Position numbers and translations under genes: made by a program. A model generated the notes under the pieces. It was not told the origin of the DNA. It did not search any database and was given only the letters and a program-made list of their open reading frames with translations. A DNA stretch of 63,333 bases from NCBI GenBank assembly GCA_964430225.1, contig CAYSFE010000002.1, forward strand, positions 1-63,333. The letters run 5' to 3'. Below, piece by piece: positions 886 to 43,855 of the stretch. How positions within the stretch are numbered: the stretch's first letter is position 1; every line of letters begins with the position of its first letter. This DNA comes from an uncultured Candidatus Saccharibacteria bacterium. Its GTDB lineage: Bacteria; Patescibacteriota; Dojkabacteria; GCA-016699595; JBAXKR01.

Positions 886-1644
886 TTATTTGTAATATTT
901 ATTTATCACATCAATTATTCCATCATCAATATATGATGGTGCGATATAGTGAGCAATTGCTTTTAACTCATCTACAGCATTTCCCATGGCTATCTTTAAG
1001 CCACATGCATTTAATAGTGAGACATCGTTATGACCATCTCCAATTCCAATAATTTCATCAGAAGATATACCACATATTTCAGATAGTTTAACTACAGCAT
1101 TTTGTTTAGTAGCTTTTATATTAGAAAAATAGATGTCTATTAAATGATCTCCTTCATATGAGGCTGCTTTAATTCCCACAACATCCTCATACTCAGAAGT
1201 AATTTCTTCAATTAGTCTTTCTGCTTCTGAATGTTTTAAGTTATGTATAGATACTTTCCTTACTTTTGATTCTAGGGGTACTGAATGAGTATTTTCAAAT
1301 ATGCCTATATCACTAGATGCTCGTGTAAGTTTATATGACTTAGCTCTATTTAAAATCTTGTTGGCTACAGAGCTTGGTAATATAGCTTCCCAAAGTATTT
1401 CTTCAGTTCTTGGATCAATAATAACTGCACCGTTATCTACTATACAAGGTCCAACCTTTCCTAAATGATTAGCTATATATTTAACCATAGAAAAAGGTCT
1501 TCCTGATGCTAAAGAAAATATTAGTCCATTATCTATAGCTTCTTTAATATGTTTTGTTGCTTTATCACTAGGATATGAATTAGGTGCAATAGGAGTTAAT
1601 GTTCCGTCAATATCACTTACGATTGCTTTGTATTTTTGTTTCAT
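886..1644 (-). CDS. HAD-superfamily hydrolase, Cof-type (subfamily IIB) phosphatase
   Basis: Contains the DIDGTL motif I and GDGHNDVSLL motif IV. The length and cap region are typical of Cof-like phosphatases. Confidence 0.8.
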   Translation of the reverse strand: MKQKYKAIVSDIDGTLTPIAPNSYPSDKATKHIKEAIDNGLIFSLASGRPFSMVKYIANHLGKVGPCIVDNGAVIIDPRTEEILWEAILPSSVANKILNRAKSYKLTRASSDIGIFENTHSVPLESKVRKVSIHNLKHSEAERLIEEITSEYEDVVGIKAASYEGDHLIDIYFSNIKATKQNAVVKLSEICGISSDEIIGIGDGHNDVSLLNACGLKIAMGNAVDELKAIAHYIAPSYIDDGIIDVINKYYK

Positions 1645-2649: not shown

Positions 2650-5589
2650 TTAAAGTATCTTTTTAAGCCACTGACCTGTATAGCTTTCCTTACATTCTAC
2701 TATATCACTAACACTACCTTCAAATATAACTGATCCGCCTTTATCTCCACCTTCAGGTCCAAGGTCAATAATATGATCTGCTGTCTTAATGACATCTAGG
2801 TTATGTTCTATAACTAGTACTGTATTACCTTTCTGTACCAAAGAATGAAGAACATGTAAGAGTTGTTCTACATCGTAGAAATGAAGTCCAGTTGTAGGCT
2901 CATCTAAGATATACATAGTCTTACCAGTTTGTTTCTTAGCTAGTTCAGTAGCTAGTTTTACTCTTTGTGCTTCTCCTCCTGATAAGGTAGTAGCTGCTTG
3001 TCCAAGACGTATATATCCTAGTCCTACTCTATCTAAAGTTTTTAGTTTATTGTTTATGAAAGATATATTCTCAAAGAACTTTAATGCTTCTTCTACTGTC
3101 ATATCTAAAATATCTGATATGTTCTTTCCTTTAAAATCTATTTCAAGTGTGTCTCTGTTGTATCTCTTCCCATCGCATTCTTCACAAGTAACATATACAT
3201 CTGGTAAGAACTGCATTTCTATCTTTATCACTCCATCACCTGAACACTTCTCACATCTACCACCTTTTGTATTGAAACTAAATCTTCCAGGTCCATAACC
3301 TCTCATCTTAGCTTCCTTAGTTTGAGAGAACATATCTCTTATGAAGTTAAATACTCCTGTATATGTAGCTGGATTACTTCTAGGTGTTCTTCCAATTGGA
3401 GATTGATCTATTACAACAACTTTATCAATATTCTCAACTCCATTTATCCCTTTATGTTTCCCTGGGAAATCTTTAGAGTCATATATCTCTTTCATCAAGG
3501 CTTTAGCTAAGATATCATTAACTAACGTAGATTTACCAGAACCAGAGGCACCAGTTACTGTTATGAACTTACCTAGTGGAAACTTAACAGAAATATCTTT
3601 TAAGTTATTCTCACTTGCTCCTAAAACTTCAATGTATTTACCTGAAGTCTTTTTTATTCTTTCTACTTCTAAGTCATTTACATCTTTTTCAATATTTCGT
3701 ATATCTTTTAATATCTGCTCTTTTGTTATTACTCTTCTCTTTGATATGTAGTCAGCTGTTAAAGTCTTAGACTTTTTAAGTTGTTCTAGGTTTCCTTCAA
3801 AGATTATCTCTCCACCGTGTTCTCCAGCTCTTGGCCCTATATCTACAATATGATCAGCGTTATGAATGGTATCTTCGTCATGTTCTACTACTATGACAGT
3901 ATTTCCAAGGTCTCTTAAATACTTAAGTGTTTTTATGAGCTTTTCATTATCTTTTTGATGTAGTCCAATACTAGGTTCATCAAGAACGTAAAGGACTCCA
4001 GTCAAACCTGATCCTATTTGAGAGGCTAATCTAATACGTTGACTCTCTCCCCCAGATAAAGACTTTGCTTTTCGTGAGAGGGTTAAATAGTTTAATCCTA
4101 CTGATACAAGAAACCCTAATCTTGCACTAAGCTCCTTTAATATCTGTTTAGCTATTATGTATTCATTCTTAGAAAGAGTTTTTTCATTTAATGATTCTAT
4201 GAAGGACTTAGCTTCAGTTATGGTCATATTATTTACTTCTAGGATATTTCTTTCTTTGATCTTTACAAACAAAGATTCTTTTCTAAGTCTAGCTCCCATA
4301 CAAGTAGGACACATCCTCTCTCTCATATATTCCCCTATTTCTGATCTAATATATTCTGAGTTTGTTTCTTTAAATCTACGAGCAAGGTTAGTAATCACTC
4401 CCTCAAATCTAGCATTATATATATTCCCTTTAGCTGTTTCTATTCTATGTGTTCCTTCTACACCGTAAAAGAGTATCTTTAGATCTTTTTCAGATAGATT
4501 CTTCATTGGAGTCTTAATATCTACACCATATTTCTTACATACTGTTTCCATTACCATTCTATTCCAGCTATTCATGCTATCCCACATCTTTGACCAAGGA
4601 TATATTCCTCCTTCTGCAATAGTAAGGTTCGGGTTATATATTAAATCAGGATCAATTTCAGATATTGTTCCAAGTCCAGCACAAGTAGGACAAGCCCCAG
4701 ATGGAGCATTAAAAGAAAAAAGGTTTGGTTCGAGTTTAGGAAAAGAGGATCCATCTGAAAGAACAAAGCTTTCTGAATACAAAGTGTCTTTTTTACTATC
4801 TACGTCATTTAAAATTATACTTCCCTCACTTAAGCTAAGTGCAAGTTCTACGGAATCAGTAACTCTTTTTCTAAATTCTTTAAAAGTTTTAAGATCCTCA
4901 TTTAGACTAGTATTTTCTTTATTTAGTTCTTTGTTTAATTCCCCATACTCCGGCTTTATTACTAGTCTATCTATGACAATTTCAATATTATGGATCTTGT
5001 ATCTATCTAGTTTAATATCTTCTTCAAGGTTATGTATTTCGTTATCTACTCTAACTCTCACAAATCCTTTATTTAGAAATCTTTGGAATAGCTCTTCATA
5101 TGTTCCTTTTCTGTTCTTGATTATTGGGCTAAGGATCATTACCTTTCTTTCCCCCTTACTTGTCATTATCTTATCTACAATTTCTTGTACACTTTGAGAT
5201 TCAAGTACTTTACCAGTCTTAGGGTCATATGGTTTCCCTATACGAGCATAGAGAAGTCTAAGATAGTCATATATCTCTGTTACTGTACCTACTGTGGATC
5301 TTGGATTATGTCCTGAGCTCTTTTGGTCTATGGATATGGCTGGGCTTAGTCCTTCAATATATTCAATATCAGGTTTTTGCATTAAGCCTAGGAACTGTCT
5401 AGCATATGAGCTTAGACTTTCTACATATCTTCTTTGACCTTCTGCGTATATGGTGTCAAAAGCAAGAGATGATTTACCCGATCCAGAAAGACCTGTAAAG
5501 ACAATAAGCCTGTTCTTAGGTAAAGTTAAGCTTACATTCTTAAGGTTATGTACCTTAGCATTTTTTATGACAATATTTTCAAGGGACAT
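2650..5589 (-). CDS. uvrA: excinuclease ABC subunit A
   Basis: 979 aa with two ABC modules (GLSGSGKSSLAFDT, GASGSGKSTLV; LSGGE signatures) and zinc-finger cysteine pairs (CPTCAG, CEKCSGDG). Confidence 0.97.
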   Translation of the reverse strand: MSLENIVIKNAKVHNLKNVSLTLPKNRLIVFTGLSGSGKSSLAFDTIYAEGQRRYVESLSSYARQFLGLMQKPDIEYIEGLSPAISIDQKSSGHNPRSTVGTVTEIYDYLRLLYARIGKPYDPKTGKVLESQSVQEIVDKIMTSKGERKVMILSPIIKNRKGTYEELFQRFLNKGFVRVRVDNEIHNLEEDIKLDRYKIHNIEIVIDRLVIKPEYGELNKELNKENTSLNEDLKTFKEFRKRVTDSVELALSLSEGSIILNDVDSKKDTLYSESFVLSDGSSFPKLEPNLFSFNAPSGACPTCAGLGTISEIDPDLIYNPNLTIAEGGIYPWSKMWDSMNSWNRMVMETVCKKYGVDIKTPMKNLSEKDLKILFYGVEGTHRIETAKGNIYNARFEGVITNLARRFKETNSEYIRSEIGEYMRERMCPTCMGARLRKESLFVKIKERNILEVNNMTITEAKSFIESLNEKTLSKNEYIIAKQILKELSARLGFLVSVGLNYLTLSRKAKSLSGGESQRIRLASQIGSGLTGVLYVLDEPSIGLHQKDNEKLIKTLKYLRDLGNTVIVVEHDEDTIHNADHIVDIGPRAGEHGGEIIFEGNLEQLKKSKTLTADYISKRRVITKEQILKDIRNIEKDVNDLEVERIKKTSGKYIEVLGASENNLKDISVKFPLGKFITVTGASGSGKSTLVNDILAKALMKEIYDSKDFPGKHKGINGVENIDKVVVIDQSPIGRTPRSNPATYTGVFNFIRDMFSQTKEAKMRGYGPGRFSFNTKGGRCEKCSGDGVIKIEMQFLPDVYVTCEECDGKRYNRDTLEIDFKGKNISDILDMTVEEALKFFENISFINNKLKTLDRVGLGYIRLGQAATTLSGGEAQRVKLATELAKKQTGKTMYILDEPTTGLHFYDVEQLLHVLHSLVQKGNTVLVIEHNLDVIKTADHIIDLGPEGGDKGGSVIFEGSVSDIVECKESYTGQWLKKIL

Positions 5590-26996: not shown

Positions 26997-27072
26997 TGGA
27001 GCGAAAGACGAGATTCGAACTCGCGACCTCTTCCTTGGGAAGGAAGCGTTCTACCAACTGAACTACTTTCGC
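26997..27072 (-). tRNA. tRNA-Gly (anticodon CCC), CCA encoded, discriminator U
   Basis: The reverse complement GCGAAAGTAGTTCAGTTGGTAGAACG-CTTCC-TTCCCAA-GGAAG-AGGTC-GCGAG-TTCGAAT-CTCGT-CTTTCGC-T-CCA folds as a cloverleaf. Confidence 0.9.
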
Positions 27073-31983: not shown

Positions 31984-32664
31984 ATGCACAGATTCTATAT
32001 TGATCTAACAAAAACAGGTAATCTCATTACTAACTCTGAAAGCTATCATGCTATTAGGGTTTTAAGAGTAAAAGTTGGAGAAAAGATTGTTTGTTTTGAT
32101 GGGAATGGAAATGAAAGTATATGTTTAGTAAGGGTAGTTGATGAAAGTAATAAAAAACACCCATCTCTTTTAATAGATGTTCTATCAAGTCAGAAATTTG
32201 AAAAATCTAAGTTTGAAAAAGTGTTAATAGTAAGTTCTTTTAAACTTGATAGACTTGAATGGGGAATTGAAAAAGCAGTAGAACTAGGAATAGAAAGGAT
32301 AATAGTAACACAAACAAAATACTCTCAAGTCCCACTTTCTCTAGTAGAAAAGAAGATTGATCGACTAAATGAAATAGTGTTAAGTGCCTCTAAACAATGT
32401 GAAAGAAAATATATTCCTAGTTTAGAACTTAAAGAGTTTAAAGAAATACTTTCTCTTAAGGGAAATAGATATGTGGCAAATAGGGATGGTAAAGGGGTAA
32501 TTGAAAAAAATATGACTGATACATATATATTCGTAGGTCCAGAAGGAGGATTTGAAACTAGTGAATTAAAAGAATTGGTTGATTCAGGCTTTATTGAAGT
32601 TAGTTTAGCACCAAATATCTTGAGAGCTGAAACAGCAATGGCGATAGCTTCTTACTCTATCTAG
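31984..32664 (+). CDS. rsmE: 16S rRNA (uracil1498-N3)-methyltransferase
   Basis: MHRFYI start, a PUA-like N-domain (HAIRVLRVKVGEKI) and a C-terminal SPOUT knot (VGPEGGF...LAPNILRAETA). Confidence 0.85.
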   Translation: MHRFYIDLTKTGNLITNSESYHAIRVLRVKVGEKIVCFDGNGNESICLVRVVDESNKKHPSLLIDVLSSQKFEKSKFEKVLIVSSFKLDRLEWGIEKAVELGIERIIVTQTKYSQVPLSLVEKKIDRLNEIVLSASKQCERKYIPSLELKEFKEILSLKGNRYVANRDGKGVIEKNMTDTYIFVGPEGGFETSELKELVDSGFIEVSLAPNILRAETAMAIASYSI

Positions 32665-37788: not shown

Positions 37789-38313
37789 CTACTCTGACTG
37801 TAGTCTTAATAGTACCCCATTTTCTGCATTAGGAGCTATAACTCTTAATACTCCAGTTTCAGTTTTATCTAAACAGATAGTATATCCAGTATCTGTCTCA
37901 GTTCCGACTTGAGGATCTAATGGAACACTTGCAAGATATGTTGGAACAAGAACAGGAGTTAAATTAACTAGTCCTGCTTTGCTACCAATATTTCTCCCTG
38001 TTGGGACTGAAGTACATGTAGGAATAGCTGAAAGATTTACACCATCCACTTCTGCTTGTGCAACTGCATTAAATATTTCTGTTACATCAGACCTTCTTTG
38101 GGTATTTCTAGCATCAGAAATATTCTTGGCTGGATTAATAGCTACAAACACACCAGATAAAATAATACCTCCAAAACATAATACACATAAGACAATTATT
38201 ACTATTAAAACTATTGCCCAGACTGGAAACTTTTTCTTAGGTGTAACTGGTGTTACTGGAGTATTCTCAACCTTTGTTACGGGCTCTGTTACTTTAGCTG
38301 TACTTTCTTCCAT
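37789..38313 (-). CDS. pilin-like membrane-anchored protein lacking a canonical prepilin cleavage motif
   Basis: A 30-aa polar leader and one TM helix are followed by INPAKNISDARNTQRRSDVTEIFNAVAQ and a later LVPTYLASVPLDPQ, which is a pilin alpha1/beta-like pattern. Confidence 0.55.
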   Translation of the reverse strand: MEESTAKVTEPVTKVENTPVTPVTPKKKFPVWAIVLIVIIVLCVLCFGGIILSGVFVAINPAKNISDARNTQRRSDVTEIFNAVAQAEVDGVNLSAIPTCTSVPTGRNIGSKAGLVNLTPVLVPTYLASVPLDPQVGTETDTGYTICLDKTETGVLRVIAPNAENGVLLRLQSE

Positions 38314-38414
38314 AATATATTGGTAATAATTATGTAATGATAATAGTTCATGACTTAATATTATTCAATCTATTTGACCTTGTATTCTTCAATATTTGTA
38401 TATATATTATTCCT

Positions 38415-39092
38415 ATGAAAAGTAAAATCATCATCTCAGGTCAGCCTGGTGCAGGGTCAACCACAATATCCCTAATTCTTTCATACTTACTTAAGTATAA
38501 ATATATATACACAGGTATGGTACAAAGAGATTTAGCTAAAGCTTTGGGATATGATTCTGAAGGGGAAGCATTTGTAAGGTATACAAAAGAGAAGGAAAGC
38601 AAATATGATAAAGATGTAGATAGACTTGTTAGAGAAGAATTTCTTAAGAATGAAAAGATAATCCTAGATTCAAAGATACATGGATTTTTTGATTACTCTA
38701 ATGTTGATGTCTTAAAGGTATATGTCATTTGTTCTAAAAAGAAAAGAAACCAAAGAATTGTAGCTCAGGGAAGAAAAGATGGTTTAGAATTACTAGATCA
38801 AAGGGAAAAAGCAAATAGGGATAATTTTTTAAACCTTTATGGGTTTGATGTATTTGATGAAAAACAGATAAGGAATAAATATGATTTGGTTATAGACTCT
38901 ACCAATCAAAATATTGCTGAAACACTTCAAGAAATAATTAAGAAACTAGAAGTAGATATACCTGAATCTGATTTGGTAAATATCTCAGAGGTATATTGGG
39001 CTAAAGGAAAATCATTCTTTAGGGGTGAATTAGCTAAACAAAATCTTCTTCTTGACACTAAACCTATTGTAAATGAACTCTTAAAGCTTTAA
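38415..39092 (+). CDS. P-loop nucleoside-monophosphate kinase, cytidylate-kinase-like
   Basis: MKSKIIISGQPGAGSTTIS Walker A at the N-terminus. The start is trimmed from the tracked ORF to the Met preceding the P-loop. Confidence 0.55.
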   Translation: MKSKIIISGQPGAGSTTISLILSYLLKYKYIYTGMVQRDLAKALGYDSEGEAFVRYTKEKESKYDKDVDRLVREEFLKNEKIILDSKIHGFFDYSNVDVLKVYVICSKKKRNQRIVAQGRKDGLELLDQREKANRDNFLNLYGFDVFDEKQIRNKYDLVIDSTNQNIAETLQEIIKKLEVDIPESDLVNISEVYWAKGKSFFRGELAKQNLLLDTKPIVNELLKL

Positions 39093-39099
39093 TATATAC

Positions 39100-39221
39100 C
39101 TAGTGATTTTAGTCTTTGGCAAGCTAAGTTGTAAGTAAAAGTGCCTAAGTAATTAGGAATATGGGTGGAACCGCGACTTCTATGAAGAGGCCGTCCCAGA
39201 TATATAATTAATATATATATT
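39100..39221 (+). promoter_or_regulatory. T-box-like leader (putative tRNA-Gly-sensing riboswitch), unusually short
   Basis: - GGGTGGAACCGCG at 39163-39175 matches the T-box consensus AGGGUGGNACCGCG.
- CCGTCCC at 39191-39197 can close an antiterminator around a UGGAACC bulge.
- A hairpin (CCTAA-GTAA-TTAGG, 39144-39157) lies just upstream.
- The downstream operon contains GlyRS. Confidence 0.6.
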
Positions 39222-39821
39222 ATGGCGACAGCTGAAAACACAATTAATACATTTCAATTTGGTAGAGAGCTTAAAGTAGTACCTGATATGCATACTAAAC
39301 ATGGTGCAGAAATTATGCTTGGGATTTGTGCTGTTCTTAATGAGAATCCCTCAGATAGATTTGGCACAGGAGTCATAGGTGTTTTTGAAAAACCTTTAAA
39401 TGCTGGAACTTTAAAGCCTAAGCCTCTTGGATATCTAGTCTTTACAGTAGGACCTACCTCAATTGTGTGTTCAATGACTACTCATTTAAATACAATGGCA
39501 TTAAATTCGTCTTTACCTTCTTGGATTACTGATATTAATGAAATTGCATCTGGTAATGGATTACAGGCAGTTCCAATGGAAAAAACAGAATATTTAGTAA
39601 AAGATGGTAATGGTAATAATGTTACAAAAAAGGAATATATACCAAACAGAGCATATACTAACTTGGGTTTAGGAGAACTATTAGTTACACAATTAGAACT
39701 TTATGCAAAGTCTATAGGTATTAAGAATATAGCTTTTGATGATGCAAACGAGCATGCAGGCAAGCTTCTTAATAGATTAGGATATGTTGGAGCAAAAAAT
39801 CTTAAAAAAACATTAGAATAA
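39222..39821 (+). CDS. GNAT-fold acyltransferase-like protein
   Basis: 199 aa. The C-terminal AYTNLGLGELLVTQLELYAKSIGIKNIAFDDANEHAGKLLNRLGY resembles GNAT motif A plus beta5-alpha4. The N-terminal half is unassigned. Confidence 0.5.
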   Translation: MATAENTINTFQFGRELKVVPDMHTKHGAEIMLGICAVLNENPSDRFGTGVIGVFEKPLNAGTLKPKPLGYLVFTVGPTSIVCSMTTHLNTMALNSSLPSWITDINEIASGNGLQAVPMEKTEYLVKDGNGNNVTKKEYIPNRAYTNLGLGELLVTQLELYAKSIGIKNIAFDDANEHAGKLLNRLGYVGAKNLKKTLE

Positions 39822-39846
39822 ATATTATTTTTTATCTTTTTATCTC

Positions 39847-41232
39847 ATGGCAAAATTAACACTAGATCATATGGCATCATTTACAAAATCACGAGGTTTT
39901 GTATACCCCTCTTCTGAGATATATGGTGGATTTGCAGCTGTATATGACTATGGACACTATGGAATTCTTTTAAAGAAGAATATTGAAAGTATGTGGTTTA
40001 AGAGTATGGTTCAAGAGAGAGATGATGTATATGCTCTTGATTCTGGAATATTCATGCATCCCCTAACTTGGAAGGCCTCTGGACATCTTGATAGTTTTAA
40101 TGATGTATTAATTGAAGATAAGGTGACTCATAAAAGATATAGAGCGGATCATGTAATTGAAGAATATTTTGAAAAGAAAGGAGAGAAAGTAGATATGGAT
40201 AAAAAGACTCCTGAAGAGATGGCTAAGATAATTACTGATAACAAAATTCTTAGTCCTGATGGAAATGAACTTACCTCTCCTCGTAACTTTAGCCTTATGA
40301 TTAAGACTAACTTAGGAGTTACAGATGGTAGTTTTAGTGATGAAAGTGCTGTATATCCTAGAGCTGAAACTTGTCAGGGTATATATCTAGATTATAAAGC
40401 GGTTATGGATAGTTTAAGACCTAAACTTCCATTTGGAATAGCTCAAATTGGTAAAGCATTTAGAAATGAAATAGTAGCAAGACAGTTCATATTTAGAACT
40501 CGAGAGTTTGAACAAATGGAAATGCAATATTTCCTACATCCAACAGAAATGGATACTAAGTATGAAGAATGGAAACAATATAGACATAAGTGGTTTATTG
40601 AAATGGGAATACCAGAGGATAAAGTAAGATTTAAAGAACATACAAAACTTGCTCACTATGCATCTAAAGCATACGATATCGAATACAACTTTGATATTTT
40701 AGGTGGATTTAAAGAAGTAGAGGGAATTCATGCGCGTGGTGATTGGGATCTATCACAACACCAAAAGTTTAGTGGTGTAGATCTTACTTACTTTGATCAA
40801 GTTCGAAATGAGAAATATCTTCCAAACATTATGGAAACATCTGTTGGACTAAATAGACTTTTCTTAATGTTTCTAGACAATGCCTACACTGAAGAAGAAG
40901 TTAATGGAGAAAAAAGAATAGTATTAAAACTAGATAAAAGATTAGCTCCTGTAAAGATATCTATACTTCCTCTTTCTAAGAAGGAACCTTTATCTACTAT
41001 TGCACATGAGATAAAGAATACTTTAAGAAAAACATATTTTGTAGAGTATGATGAAACTCAAAGTATTGGAAAGAGATATAGAAGAGCAGATGAAATAGGT
41101 ACTCCATATTGTATTACAGTAGATTTTGAAACTGTAAATGATAAAAAGGTAACGGTAAGAGATAGAGATAGTATGAAACAAGATAGAATAGAAATATCTA
41201 AATTAGAAGAATATTTTAAGGAGAAGTTTTAA
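39847..41232 (+). CDS. glyQS: glycyl-tRNA synthetase, single-chain (alpha2) class II type
   Basis: 461 aa with FVYPSSEIYGG near the N-terminus, motif 2 GIAQIGKAFRNEI, and a C-terminal anticodon-binding domain (APVKISILPL). Confidence 0.95.
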   Translation: MAKLTLDHMASFTKSRGFVYPSSEIYGGFAAVYDYGHYGILLKKNIESMWFKSMVQERDDVYALDSGIFMHPLTWKASGHLDSFNDVLIEDKVTHKRYRADHVIEEYFEKKGEKVDMDKKTPEEMAKIITDNKILSPDGNELTSPRNFSLMIKTNLGVTDGSFSDESAVYPRAETCQGIYLDYKAVMDSLRPKLPFGIAQIGKAFRNEIVARQFIFRTREFEQMEMQYFLHPTEMDTKYEEWKQYRHKWFIEMGIPEDKVRFKEHTKLAHYASKAYDIEYNFDILGGFKEVEGIHARGDWDLSQHQKFSGVDLTYFDQVRNEKYLPNIMETSVGLNRLFLMFLDNAYTEEEVNGEKRIVLKLDKRLAPVKISILPLSKKEPLSTIAHEIKNTLRKTYFVEYDETQSIGKRYRRADEIGTPYCITVDFETVNDKKVTVRDRDSMKQDRIEISKLEEYFKEKF

Positions 41233-43855
41233 ACTCTTCTTCAAGTTGTTTCTTCTTTTTTCTTCTAAGAATTATTACGAATACTGTTATAACTAACGCT
41301 AACACTAAGCACGCTAGTATTACTGGCAAAGTACTTACATTTATATATGTACTTGCAACTGTACCGATATTAGGTCTTGATATGCTAGATTGTTTCGATA
41401 TAGAAGGATCTATTGCTACAATTATCTTAAACTCTCCAGATTCACTAAGGTTTCTAGTAAACTTTTGATCTCCTACAGTAATAACAGTTTCTGTTTCAGC
41501 AACATTTTTTTCAACCATTATTTCCCCATTTTTATCAGTTGTATATTTTCTATCGCCCACGTAAACATCTACTCCTAAAACTGGACTATCATTATTGTCA
41601 CGGATTAGAACGGTTATACTATCTGATACTGTTGTTGATGATGATAGTGATGAACTAGTAGCTGAAGTTGTACTTGTAGAACTTGATGTTGTTTCAGTTT
41701 CAACATTATCAGGGCAATATATTTCTTTTAATGTAGGAGTAAAGTTTTCACATCCTAATACTATTACAAGTGTTCTTTTTTCTGATTCAATATTATCTGA
41801 AGTTACAGCATAGTAAGTAAAGGTATTACTACCTGTAGGTACTGATTTAATTTCAATACTAAACTTACCATTACTGTCAGTTTGAGAAGTATAGTACGTG
41901 TCTCCTAACTTAAATTTTATAGTTATAGAAGGATCTGCACTTCCCTTTATATCCAGTGTTGAAGAAAGGAAATAGTATTTTAAGGAGTCTTTATCAGGAA
42001 TATTATTTATGAGTCCAATAGACTCAATCTTCACTTTGTTTACTTTGAAATTCTGTGAAAATGCTCCATATGGTGAAGTTAATCCAGATATTTTCCAGTA
42101 CTTATTATCCCCTATTTCCTCAGTTGTTCCATTTAAAACTCTTGTATAATTTGTACAACTCGAAGTAATGCTTTCAATGCTAACCTGATTGGGGCATAGT
42201 CCTACAACATTATCACCATCCTTTTTCGGAATATATAGATCATATGTAGAAGTAACTCCAGTAATTCCAGTTAATGCTCCAACATATGATTTATAGTTTA
42301 CACTATCACTACCTGCAACAAAGCTTGAGAAGTCTAAGTCGCTATTAAATGTAGAGTTTAAATTCGTAATATATTTTCCATTCGAATCTTCTATTCTTAA
42401 TGTTTGTGGTCCATATGAACCATATCCAGTTCCAATAGTAACTTCATTTTCTCCCACAAATCCTTTCATCCCACCTGATAGATTTTTCACTTGGTAGGTA
42501 TTTGTTAGTACCAACATATATGAGTCTAAATATGTTGTTGCACCCTTACTTATTCCCCCAATAAAATATTTGTTATCCTTTAAAGCTATTGAATTGGCTC
42601 TTTCATATTGATTTCCCCCTCCTATGTTATTGTAAGTTAAGACTCCATTTGTACCAAATGTAGTATCAGTTTCTCCATTTTCATTTATTCTTGTAACAAG
42701 TACATCCTGTCCAGTACTTACCTCTCCTACTACAATATATTTACCACTAGGATCTATAATGAAATCATGAAACTTTTCGGAACTAGTTGATATATCAAAA
42801 TATTTATACCCAGTTGAATTGAAACTTGTATCAAAGCTTGAATCTGGATTTACTCTCACAATTAGACCATCGTAATCATATGTTGGACCATTTTTTCTAG
42901 TTACACCTACGATTAAATATTTACCATTAGAAAGAACTTTAAATCTACTTGGAGTAGTCATAAAGTCTTGCATACCAGTAAATACAAATGACTTGTGACC
43001 AGTAGAATTAAATGAAGTATCTAGTCCTCCATTCTCATTTACTCTATGTAAAATTAATCCATATTCATTTCCAGGGTTGTTTCTAACACCCGCTATAACT
43101 AATTTGTTAGTTGAATCTATATCAAATCTATATCCAAAGTCACGACATCCTGAACAGTCTTCTGAATTAATTGTGAAAATACCATCACTATCAAAAGAAG
43201 TATCTAATGTTCCATTGGAATTATATTTCCAAACAACCAAGTCTCTATCATTGCTTATAGCACTTGCACTATCACCAACAACAAATATTTTCCCTGATTC
43301 TGTAATTTTTATATCTCTACCTGTATCATCTCCACTTCCTCCTGCTGCTCCATGATGTGTTAGTATTCCTGTTCCATTAAACGAAGTATCTAGAGTTCCA
43401 TCAGTATTAAATCGCCAAATGATCATATCCCATAGGTTTGTACCATCTATGTACTTTTCTCCAGTTACAACAATCTTTCCATCATTTTGTATGGCCATAC
43501 TATACGGAGTAACATTCTTGTTCTCATTTATAGTTATATACCCTAACCCACCATTAAATGAAGTGTCTGACGTTCCATTTGAATTGTATTTATATATGAC
43601 AATATTACGGTAATAGCTAGCATTAGAACCTGAACCAAGGGATAAGATCTTTCCATCGCTTAGTACTTTTGTATCATAAATTTCTTCGTCATCATTTCCT
43701 CCTAATGCGTCTCTTTGTAGACTAGAAAACGAGGAGTTTATTTCTGCAAAAGATGGAGCAGAATATCTATTTAAATTCCAAAAAGTGAATATGTAAGATA
43801 CAAGCACTAATGTGGAAAAAAGTGATAACCGTACTAATTTATCATGCAGATTCAT
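41216..43855 (-). CDS. surface protein with delta-60-type beta-propeller repeats, Ig-like/carboxypeptidase-regulatory-like modules, a Ser/Thr linker and a C-terminal TM anchor
   Basis: 879 aa with a signal peptide and repeated (D/N)GT(L/S)DTSFN..G...DGKI.V.G units. Also contains an SSSTSTTSATSSSLSSST linker and ends in a TM helix plus RRKKKK. Confidence 0.7.
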   Translation of the reverse strand: MNLHDKLVRLSLFSTLVLVSYIFTFWNLNRYSAPSFAEINSSFSSLQRDALGGNDDEEIYDTKVLSDGKILSLGSGSNASYYRNIVIYKYNSNGTSDTSFNGGLGYITINENKNVTPYSMAIQNDGKIVVTGEKYIDGTNLWDMIIWRFNTDGTLDTSFNGTGILTHHGAAGGSGDDTGRDIKITESGKIFVVGDSASAISNDRDLVVWKYNSNGTLDTSFDSDGIFTINSEDCSGCRDFGYRFDIDSTNKLVIAGVRNNPGNEYGLILHRVNENGGLDTSFNSTGHKSFVFTGMQDFMTTPSRFKVLSNGKYLIVGVTRKNGPTYDYDGLIVRVNPDSSFDTSFNSTGYKYFDISTSSEKFHDFIIDPSGKYIVVGEVSTGQDVLVTRINENGETDTTFGTNGVLTYNNIGGGNQYERANSIALKDNKYFIGGISKGATTYLDSYMLVLTNTYQVKNLSGGMKGFVGENEVTIGTGYGSYGPQTLRIEDSNGKYITNLNSTFNSDLDFSSFVAGSDSVNYKSYVGALTGITGVTSTYDLYIPKKDGDNVVGLCPNQVSIESITSSCTNYTRVLNGTTEEIGDNKYWKISGLTSPYGAFSQNFKVNKVKIESIGLINNIPDKDSLKYYFLSSTLDIKGSADPSITIKFKLGDTYYTSQTDSNGKFSIEIKSVPTGSNTFTYYAVTSDNIESEKRTLVIVLGCENFTPTLKEIYCPDNVETETTSSSTSTTSATSSSLSSSTTVSDSITVLIRDNNDSPVLGVDVYVGDRKYTTDKNGEIMVEKNVAETETVITVGDQKFTRNLSESGEFKIIVAIDPSISKQSSISRPNIGTVASTYINVSTLPVILACLVLALVITVFVIILRRKKKKQLEEEFKTSP

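Follow-up and report, generated by a model that had tools for sequence, protein, structure and literature searches.

We propose that positions 39102-39233 of the stretch analysed here hold what is probably a minimal glycine T-box riboswitch with a start-codon-sequestering output. The stretch, called the window throughout, is contig CAYSFE010000002.1 of assembly GCA_964430225.1 (positions 1-63,333, forward strand), from an uncultured Candidatus Saccharibacteria bacterium assigned to Dojkabacteria in GTDB. The element precedes an open reading frame (ORF) for a GNAT-like protein, which is followed by glyS, the gene of glycyl-tRNA synthetase (GlyRS). A T-box-like leader had been predicted at this locus from the DNA letters alone (the original prediction). 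Judged by its sequence and its relatives, the leader is very likely a functional T-box that senses tRNA-Gly; that it acts by hiding the start codon of the GNAT-like ORF is an output towards which we lean, with much less assurance.

The predicted tRNA-reading elements of the leader

The elements of the leader, from 5' to 3', are as follows.

39102..39107, forward strand: AGUGAU, homologue of GYGAUGA, which in other members of the family makes up the 5' half of the K-turn below Stem I (family alignment and stem listing)
39108..39128, forward strand: ultrashort Stem I, UUUAGU/GCUAAG, 6 bp with a 9-nucleotide apical specifier loop CUUUGGCAA (sequence and family comparison)
39129..39143, forward strand: purine-rich single-stranded linker of 15 nucleotides, ending in the conserved AAAGUG flank of Stem III (sequence, Rfam alignment and family)
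39144..39157, forward strand: Stem III, CCUAA-GUAA-UUAGG, 5 bp with a GNRA-type loop and AA after it (Rfam alignment; -4.5 kcal/mol)
39162..39198, forward strand: discriminator, or antisequestrator, made of helices A1 and A2 and the T-box bulge (Rfam alignment and family covariation; -9.0 kcal/mol)

The T-box sequence GGGTGGAACCGCG at 39163-39175, the CCGTCCC at 39191-39197 and the stem-III-like hairpin upstream of them are all present where the original prediction had seen them. The conserved T-box consensus AGGGUGGNACCGCG is matched by uGGGUGGAACCGCG at 39162-39175 with its 7-nucleotide bulge UGGAACC (39166-72), and the 13-mer, its N left free, occurs a single time in the window with 2 mismatches permitted (0.06 occurrences expected). 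The Rfam T-box model RF00230, proposed earlier as a check, matches 39058-39201 with 37.3 bits, at E=6.6e-7 in a search of 401 nucleotides and at E=1e-4 when the whole window is compared to all 4227 Rfam families, where it is the sole significant match other than tRNAs. This score falls short of the gathering score of 93, so that a default scan is silent at the locus and returns three tRNAs only for the window. In the alignment Stem III and the antiterminator are canonically paired and 82 Stem I positions are deleted. The score under the gathering threshold speaks for a chance resemblance to the T-box consensus; the window-wide E value, the unique 13-mer, the GlyRS gene downstream and the covariation and conservation in the family described below effectively refute it, and we give it next to no credence.

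Within the discriminator, helix A1 is formed by 39162-65 and 39195-98, its outermost pair being U39162-A39198 (A-U in most family members). Helix A2 joins 39173-75 to 39192-94 and 39177-80 to 39187-90, leaving A39176 and C39191 unpaired and enclosing a variable loop at 39181-86. The UGGA of the bulge (39166-69) is complementary to the 3' UCCA of the tRNA. An inner CUUC-UAU-GAAG hairpin, noted earlier between the T-box sequence and CCGTCCC, can be drawn in the window but is not kept in relatives: it is destroyed in L003, L214 and L218 (L numbers denote related loci), which retain CUUC (39177-80) paired to GAGG (39187-90). These arms extend A2 around a freely varying 6-nucleotide loop and are unchanged in all alleles, and therefore the register of A2 is fixed and the inner hairpin disfavoured.

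Stem I is reduced to a hairpin with arms TTTAGT (39108-13) and GCTAAG (39123-28), in whose loop lie the specifier GGC (39118-39120) and the stacking purine A39121. The original prediction had been hesitant about this fold, which the stems and loops of relatives bear out; loop CUUUGGCAA is identical in six GC-rich members of the family (L087, L118, L153, L161, L178 and L204). The competing GGCA:UGCC pairing considered earlier is rejected, as UGCC would take up bases of Stem III and of the conserved AAAGUG before it. Rejected as well is a helix between 39099-39104 and 39152-39157, which L001, L212 and L219 do not preserve. None of the features of a long Stem I is found (complete K-turn, S-turn specifier internal loop, AG bulge and distal-loop elbow platform), and the linker at 39129-39143 stands in the place of Stem II, with neither a Stem II nor a IIA/B pseudoknot. 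The view that there is no room here for a Stem I platform or a Stem II was thus correct. Stem III is flanked by purines, AAAGUG before it and AA after it.

Glycine specificity, also predicted earlier, agrees with the GGC-A of the apical loop, with the UGGA that matches a tRNA carrying U73 and with the GlyRS gene downstream. The tRNA-Gly gene of the window (26997-27072, reverse strand), on which part of that prediction relied, has discriminator U73 followed by an encoded CCA and does match UGGA, but its anticodon is CCC, so it is not the reader of GGC; the ligand would therefore be a tRNA-Gly with anticodon GCC whose gene lies outside the window. Among the glycine codons of the window's ORFs, GGC is the least used (3.1%). 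T-box specifiers prefer C at the third position independently of codon usage, which fits this rare codon.

A family of ultrashort glycyl leaders

A motif search of GlyRS loci for TGGAACCGCG just upstream of glyS returned three further loci, L008 (Nealsonbacteria), L015 (Moraniibacteria) and L023 (labelled 'uncultured Micavibrio sp.'), each with a short leader, an apical-loop hairpin and a classical terminator. These three, together with L206, L208 and L210, were also found independently by GlyRS homology alone. The apical loops read UUGGCA in L008, GUGGCA in L023, UUGGAU in L015, UUGGCAA in L206 and GUGGCG in L210, so that a GGN specifier is conserved, as the original prediction would have it (GGC in four of the five loci, GGA in L015), among relatives found without the specifier as a requirement.

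Scanning metagenomes with the pattern TGGCA-N35-65-GGTGGAACCGCG-N6-30-CGTCC gave 120 loci, including 40 distinct leaders that lie 40-300 nucleotides upstream of GlyRS genes. Some of the 40 are ordinary long-Stem-I leaders, which match because their specifier is in the 3' strand of Stem I. The GlyRS proteins of the metagenome leaders are throughout about 50% identical to those of the named GTDB loci, which gives no taxonomic assignment. About 20 of the 40 have the same ultrashort Stem I and a promoter-like -10 box 10-25 nucleotides upstream of the hairpin. The order of elements is shared: GYGAUGA, a stem of 3-7 bp, a UGGCA apical loop, the return stem with GGAGC, a short linker, AAAGYG, Stem III, AA and the T-box sequence. 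These leaders measure about 95 nucleotides, lack the distal platform and Stem II and keep a canonical Stem III and discriminator. By these features the leader of the window belongs to a minimal glycyl T-box family located upstream of GlyRS in several Patescibacteria metagenome-assembled genomes (MAGs) and some 20 metagenome contigs.

The family scores 30-60 bits in Rfam. At gathering thresholds, which are insensitive to the ultrashort class, Rfam reports no T-box in 20 Patescibacteria GlyRS loci, and even at E<=0.01 it misses L008 and L015 despite their clear T-box motifs. Most members end in terminators. Five (L091, L100, L199, L127 and L108) have no U run and a buried Shine-Dalgarno sequence, the helix of L100 covering both AGGA and AUG. 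One low-GC metagenome contig, L145, carries a canonical T-box (1284-1487, reverse strand, 108 bits, which exceeds the gathering score) and an ultrashort glycyl T-box (4814-4911, reverse strand, 45 bits); one organism thus has both architectures.

Covariation in A1 and A2 was examined in an alignment of 25 sequences, in which the columns fixed by the search pattern are invariant and uninformative and the signal comes from the free pairs. Pairing is found in 89.5% of cells compared to 73.5% after shuffling, and double changes in 55 cells compared to 19.7 (0 of 500 shuffles reached these values), and the pairing breaks down once the partner columns are shifted. MAFFT gave no register for Stem I, whose loops vary from 5 to 10 nucleotides, or for the 5' arm of Stem III, and column-wise covariation is therefore limited to A1/A2. 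For Stem I, where shuffling the flanks of each sequence is uninformative owing to short stems and flexible loops, arms were permuted in cross-combinations instead: native arms form 4.9 bp on average compared to 2.9 bp for cross-combinations (0 of 5000 permutations). Stem III is a different helix in each member, its pairing always kept and always flanked by AAAGYG and AA. L206, with 76% GlyRS identity, shows the compensatory change of Stem I to ACUAGU/ACUAGU.

Among close relatives (window compared to L001-L005, the contigs that carry the homologues of the GNAT-like ORF) the leader is 95-97% identical, where GlyRS third codon positions are 76-79% and the ORF DNA 63-87% identical. All substitutions are confined to the 5' flank (39099-39101), the linker (39130, 39133, 39134 and 39137), the loop of Stem III (39149), the A2 loop and, in L212, the AU run, whose length differs by one TA, and position 39231, where a single base is substituted. 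The A2 loop at 39181-86 reads UAUGAA, UUUGAA, GAAUUA, GAAUCA or AACUAA depending on the allele. The leader is, on these comparisons, apparently under purifying selection, and the alignment of relatives that had been recommended as a check bears the T-box out, with covarying A1/A2 and Stem I arms and a conserved leader.

The proposed expression platform and its terminator relatives

Downstream of the discriminator the locus continues with the following features.

39193..39229, forward strand: sequestrator hairpin GUCCCAGAUAUAUA / UAUAUAUU(A)UGG(C)GAC (minimum free energy folds; homologous to the terminator hairpin of L214, L216-L219 and L206)
39222..39224, forward strand: AUG start codon of the GNAT-like ORF, in the 3' arm of the hairpin (fold and codon counts)
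39222..39821, forward strand: GNAT-like ORF of 199 amino acids, the gene predicted to be directly controlled (Pfam Acetyltransf_1, E=0.0036, under the cut-off)
39822..39846, forward strand: U-rich spacer AUAUUAUUUUUUAUCUUUUUAUCUC, apparently the former U tract of the terminator (same sequence directly 3' of the terminator hairpin in L214 and L216-L219)
39847..41232, forward strand: glycyl-tRNA synthetase of the alpha2 type, the probable ancestral target of the T-box (Pfam tRNA-synt_2b and HGTP_anticodon; homologues)

What the original prediction overlooked is that the 3' half of the antiterminator can pair with the AU tract and the AUG, and that sister alleles bear terminators. In the minimum free energy fold G39193-A39206 is paired with U39214-C39229, A39222 and C39226 are bulged and the AUG (39222-24) is enclosed; the element, formerly ended at 39221, extends to at least 39229, as the competing hairpin takes in the start codon. 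The sequestrator amounts to -10.6 kcal/mol, or -14.1 with an optional, non-conserved extension (39189-91/39231-33), and is nearly isoenergetic and mutually exclusive with the antisequestrator (-9.0 kcal/mol). U39223 and G39224 are unpaired with a probability of 0.22-0.25. The second codon of the ORF is GCG, the rarest alanine codon (2.3% of alanine codons in ORFs of the window), and its third base pairs with C39195. The hairpin is free of substitutions in L001, L003 and L005.

As stated earlier for this locus, there is neither a terminator nor a Shine-Dalgarno sequence. A terminator scan of the forward strand over 38300-41500 found no intrinsic terminator, and no U run follows the hairpin; the same scan also missed the hairpin of L214, whose terminator is called from its fold and U-rich tail. 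No Shine-Dalgarno sequence precedes the ATG at 39222. As only 3 of 37 long ORFs of the window (at least 200 amino acids) have a Shine-Dalgarno-like 4-mer upstream, the genome barely uses this signal, and it therefore cannot be the regulatory target. Hexamers resembling a -10 box are about 3-fold enriched 0-30 nucleotides upstream of ATGs in the window, and TATAAT stands, for example, 5-7 nucleotides before the ATGs at 31984, 62901 (reverse strand), 49617 (reverse strand) and 5589 (reverse strand). This enrichment and the near-lack of Shine-Dalgarno sequences suggest that many mRNAs are leaderless or have very short leaders.

We propose that uncharged tRNA-Gly(GCC) would be read at two points only, its anticodon by GGC at 39118-20 and its 3' UCCA by UGGA at 39166-69. 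Stem III and its purine flanks would aid the UCCA:UGGA contact, and binding would stabilise A1/A2 (39162-39198). With charged tRNA-Gly, A1/A2 would be left unstabilised and 39193-39199, optionally from 39189, would pair with 39214-39229 to give a hairpin in which the GNAT-like ORF's AUG and the AU-rich tract are buried. Masking these two would block initiation in a genome that scarcely relies on Shine-Dalgarno sequences. The switch would be translational and reversible, and control of GlyRS would be indirect, by way of mRNA stability or Rho-dependent polarity, or would have been lost.

Two types of locus are found among contigs whose GlyRS is 95-96% identical to that of the window. Type S (the window, L001-L005, L212, L213 and L215) has the leader, the AUG hairpin, a variable ORF, the U-rich spacer and glyS. 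Type T (L214 and L216-L219) has the same leader followed by a 21-bp hairpin, AGAGGCCGU-CCCUAAGUAUAU...AUAUAUAUUUAGG-U-ACGGUCUUU, directly adjoined by AUUUUUUAUCUUUUUAUCUU and then by the AUG of glyS; this hairpin amounts to about -24 kcal/mol with z = -3.4. An outgroup with the same upstream gene, L206 (76% GlyRS identity), likewise has leader, terminator, U tract and glyS, and L210 and L208 (69% GlyRS identity) carry T-boxes of the terminator type. Because type T and these more distant loci all have terminator-type leaders, the ancestral state is a transcriptional ultrashort glycyl T-box.

From Stem I through linker and Stem III to the discriminator, the alleles of L214, L216-L219 and L206 match the window but for a few substitutions in loops; they also share with it the U-rich tract before glyS and the competing hairpin's 5' arm. 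They differ in that they have a 21-bp hairpin, U tract and glyS in succession, as for transcription attenuation, whereas the window has a weaker hairpin, an AUG-GCG-AC 3' arm and an ORF of 600 nucleotides before the U tract. In type S the 3' arm UAUGG-C-GAC replaces UUUAGG-U-ACGGUC; the pairing with GUCCC is kept and the ORF begins there. The AUG hairpin thus seems to descend from an intrinsic terminator: the inserted ORF came to lie between hairpin and U tract, and the 3' arm was remade to include the AUG.

Small unannotated ORFs also stand between the T-box terminator and glyS in L210 (2668-2985, about 105 amino acids) and L023 (about 2584-2955, about 124 amino acids). Neither is GNAT-like, and NCBIfam has no match for the ORF of L210. 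Small genes may have entered the interval between T-box and glyS repeatedly. In L211 (560-740), with 93% GlyRS identity, there is no T-box: a terminator of the upstream gene and a promoter-like TGTGATATATT are found instead and the N-terminus of glyS differs (MNQKELF). Even between very close relatives, then, glyS acquires T-box control or loses it.

The GNAT-like ORF is absent from type T alleles and hypervariable in the others. Between contigs with 95-96% GlyRS and about 96% leader identity its protein identity is 41-84% with large indels; that of L212 (2292-2978) is 41% identical to the ORF of the window at 95% GlyRS identity, and L005 has its ORF at 754-1464. There are 3 homologues in a database of 5.8 billion proteins and no PADLOC or NCBIfam match. 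The AlphaFold model (pLDDT 74) gives weak generic GNAT fold matches (E about 1e-3, TM 0.3-0.45), topped by the tRNA-acetylating toxins AtaT, KacT, TacT and GmvT, and these are too weak for a function to be assigned. TacT acetylates Gly-tRNA-Gly. It is conceivable from the structural model that the captured gene acts on glycyl-tRNA-Gly.

The heptamer ATATTAT is present at both junctions of the ORF (39217-39223 and 39822-39828) and could be a recombination footprint or due to chance in AT-rich DNA. Together with an ORF far more divergent than its flanks, and with the high frequency of -10-like hexamers shortly before ATGs of the genome, it might indicate that the leader is conserved for a reason other than RNA function, either as an exchange anchor for a hypervariable ORF cassette or as an AU-palindrome promoter for an ORF mRNA with a short leader. 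We hold this to be quite improbable: the substitutions spare all paired positions, the specifier and the T-box bulge, which is the pattern of an RNA structure, the same architecture covaries across unrelated contigs, and terminator alleles free of the cassette keep the leader.

A further alternative is that the aptamer is intact and its output was destroyed by the insertion, the hairpin being a leftover that is read through and both genes being constitutive. The U tract now lies 600 nucleotides away, and the T-box-less L211 indicates that regulation is dispensable in this clade. However, the aptamer varies in loops and linker only, where the ORF (41-87% identity) and GlyRS third positions (about 22% differing) have diverged, and the AUG-arm hairpin varies only by the 2-nucleotide indel of L212 and a substitution in the optional extension. 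In addition, the new sequence of the 3' arm keeps the pairing, the two folds are nearly isoenergetic, and it is a rare GCG codon that provides a pairing base. As the helix was retained, weakened to near the energy of the antisequestrator and conserved while the ORF fell to 41% identity, we infer a translational switch that is reversible; a relic seems to us unlikely.

Equally unlikely, in our estimate, is a transcriptional output of a non-intrinsic kind, in which RNA polymerase pauses at the hairpin, or Rho acts on a transcript whose leader and ORF are untranslated; tRNA-Gly would then govern read-through into the ORF and GlyRS with no need of a U tract. A rho gene is present in L208 (69% GlyRS identity), the ancestral mechanism of the sister alleles is transcriptional, and polarity would keep GlyRS under control. 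Yet what follows the hairpin is A-rich coding sequence, and a reversible translational switch accounts better for an AUG placed in the arm and for a helix whose stability has dropped from about -24 to about -11 kcal/mol.

Several observations weigh against the riboswitch with start-codon sequestration that we favour. The 3' half of the K-turn (GGAG) is missing in the window, the cognate tRNA-Gly(GCC) is not encoded there, and a truncated Stem I without Stem II is reported to have barely detectable tRNA affinity (PMC7583486). Among ORF-bearing alleles the sequestrator has no substitutions except the 2-nucleotide indel of L212 in the AU run and the change in the optional extension, and support for this hairpin comes from the comparison with terminator alleles and from energetics only. 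The fold z-score of 39160-39235 (-1.0) is unremarkable, AU palindromes folding easily, and the -10-like hexamers in the AU tract could give rise to a separate transcript with a short leader.

Genomic setting and comparison with known T-boxes

The gene upstream of the leader is cytidylate-kinase-like, and its stop codon (39090-92) lies 15 nucleotides before the specifier hairpin and about 70 nucleotides before the T-box sequence, rather than the 90 or so estimated originally. One further feature precedes the leader.

39067..39095, forward strand: possible weak promoter, TTGTAA / 17 nucleotides / TAATAT (by eye; 8 of 12 consensus positions, under the scan threshold)

This promoter would place the start of the transcript near 39102, and the substitutions of relatives at 39099-39101 are compatible with a functional RNA starting at about 39102. 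At its other end glyS overlaps by 17 nucleotides (41216-41232) the 3' end of a convergent ORF of 879 amino acids (41216-43855, reverse strand), and a matching overlap with a reverse-strand gene is found in L001 and L003. In GTDB (185,579 species genomes) only Patescibacteria MAGs figure among the best GlyRS matches, with at most 65% identity, and Dojkabacteria-labelled GlyRS proteins in a large protein database are 63-65% identical. The assignment of the genome to the Candidate Phyla Radiation (CPR), suspected from its sequence at the outset, is therefore sound.

A literature search found no T-boxes in CPR/Patescibacteria, an earlier mention being possible, for example outside the reviews, the one 2023 preprint and the TBDB methods against which novelty was judged. 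Against these sources the architecture is new in two respects, as a glycine-specific ultrashort leader without Stem II and as a predicted start-codon-sequestering output reached through gene insertion into a terminator. The TBDB pipeline dropped leaders shorter than 100 nucleotides and its class II model was run on Actinobacteria only (TBDB methods), for which reasons the database likely misses the ultrashort glycyl class. T-box regulation very likely exists in CPR/Patescibacteria, invisible to Rfam at the gathering score. If our reading is true, an element that attenuated transcription became a translational switch that sequesters a start codon when an ORF captured the 3' arm of its hairpin, and this in an organism lacking Shine-Dalgarno signals. 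Terminator and AUG-sequestering alleles on near-identical leaders make the conversion of a transcriptional into a translational riboswitch directly comparable, and the pair also bears on how translation is gated in such genomes.

The family also offers a natural system of about 95 nucleotides in which to ask what minimum of contacts a leader needs to recognise a tRNA and sense its charging. Transcriptional T-boxes generally need a long Stem I platform (PMC7583486). More broadly, and as a tentative generalisation, a T-box with two contacts, anticodon and 3' end, and with neither elbow platform nor Stem II, might suffice for sensing tRNA-Gly; it would represent a widespread unannotated glycyl class in the CPR and other uncultured lineages, both transcriptional and translational, of which a hypervariable GNAT-like gene would here have captured the terminator 3' arm as its start site.

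The canonical glyQS/glyS T-boxes of Bacillus subtilis and Geobacillus kaustophilus (RF00230) share with the window a GGC followed by a purine, the lack of Stem II, a short single-stranded linker, the purine flanks of Stem III, the AGGGUGGAACCGCG bulge with UGGA for U73 and a position upstream of glycyl-tRNA synthetase. Unlike them, the window has a Stem I reduced to a 6-bp hairpin with the specifier in its apical loop and half a K-turn, and it lacks the S-turn internal loop, the AG bulge/distal-loop platform and the intrinsic terminator; its score is 37 bits, where the gathering score is 93.

The ultrashort T-boxes described so far all regulate ileS (bioRxiv 10.1101/2023.02.28.530422). With those of Actinobacteria (PMC7583486; bioRxiv 10.1101/2023.02.28.530422) the window has in common a terminal-loop specifier, a very short Stem I, no elbow platform, and a predicted translational output in which sequestrator and antisequestrator are of similar stability. 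The ileS leaders contain an S-turn-bearing Stem II and a IIA/B pseudoknot, reported to be required for tRNA affinity, sense tRNA-Ile and mask a Shine-Dalgarno sequence, whereas the window has a 15-nucleotide linker, is glycine-specific and would mask an AUG and its AU tract, and the new glycyl family to which it belongs is mostly transcriptional.

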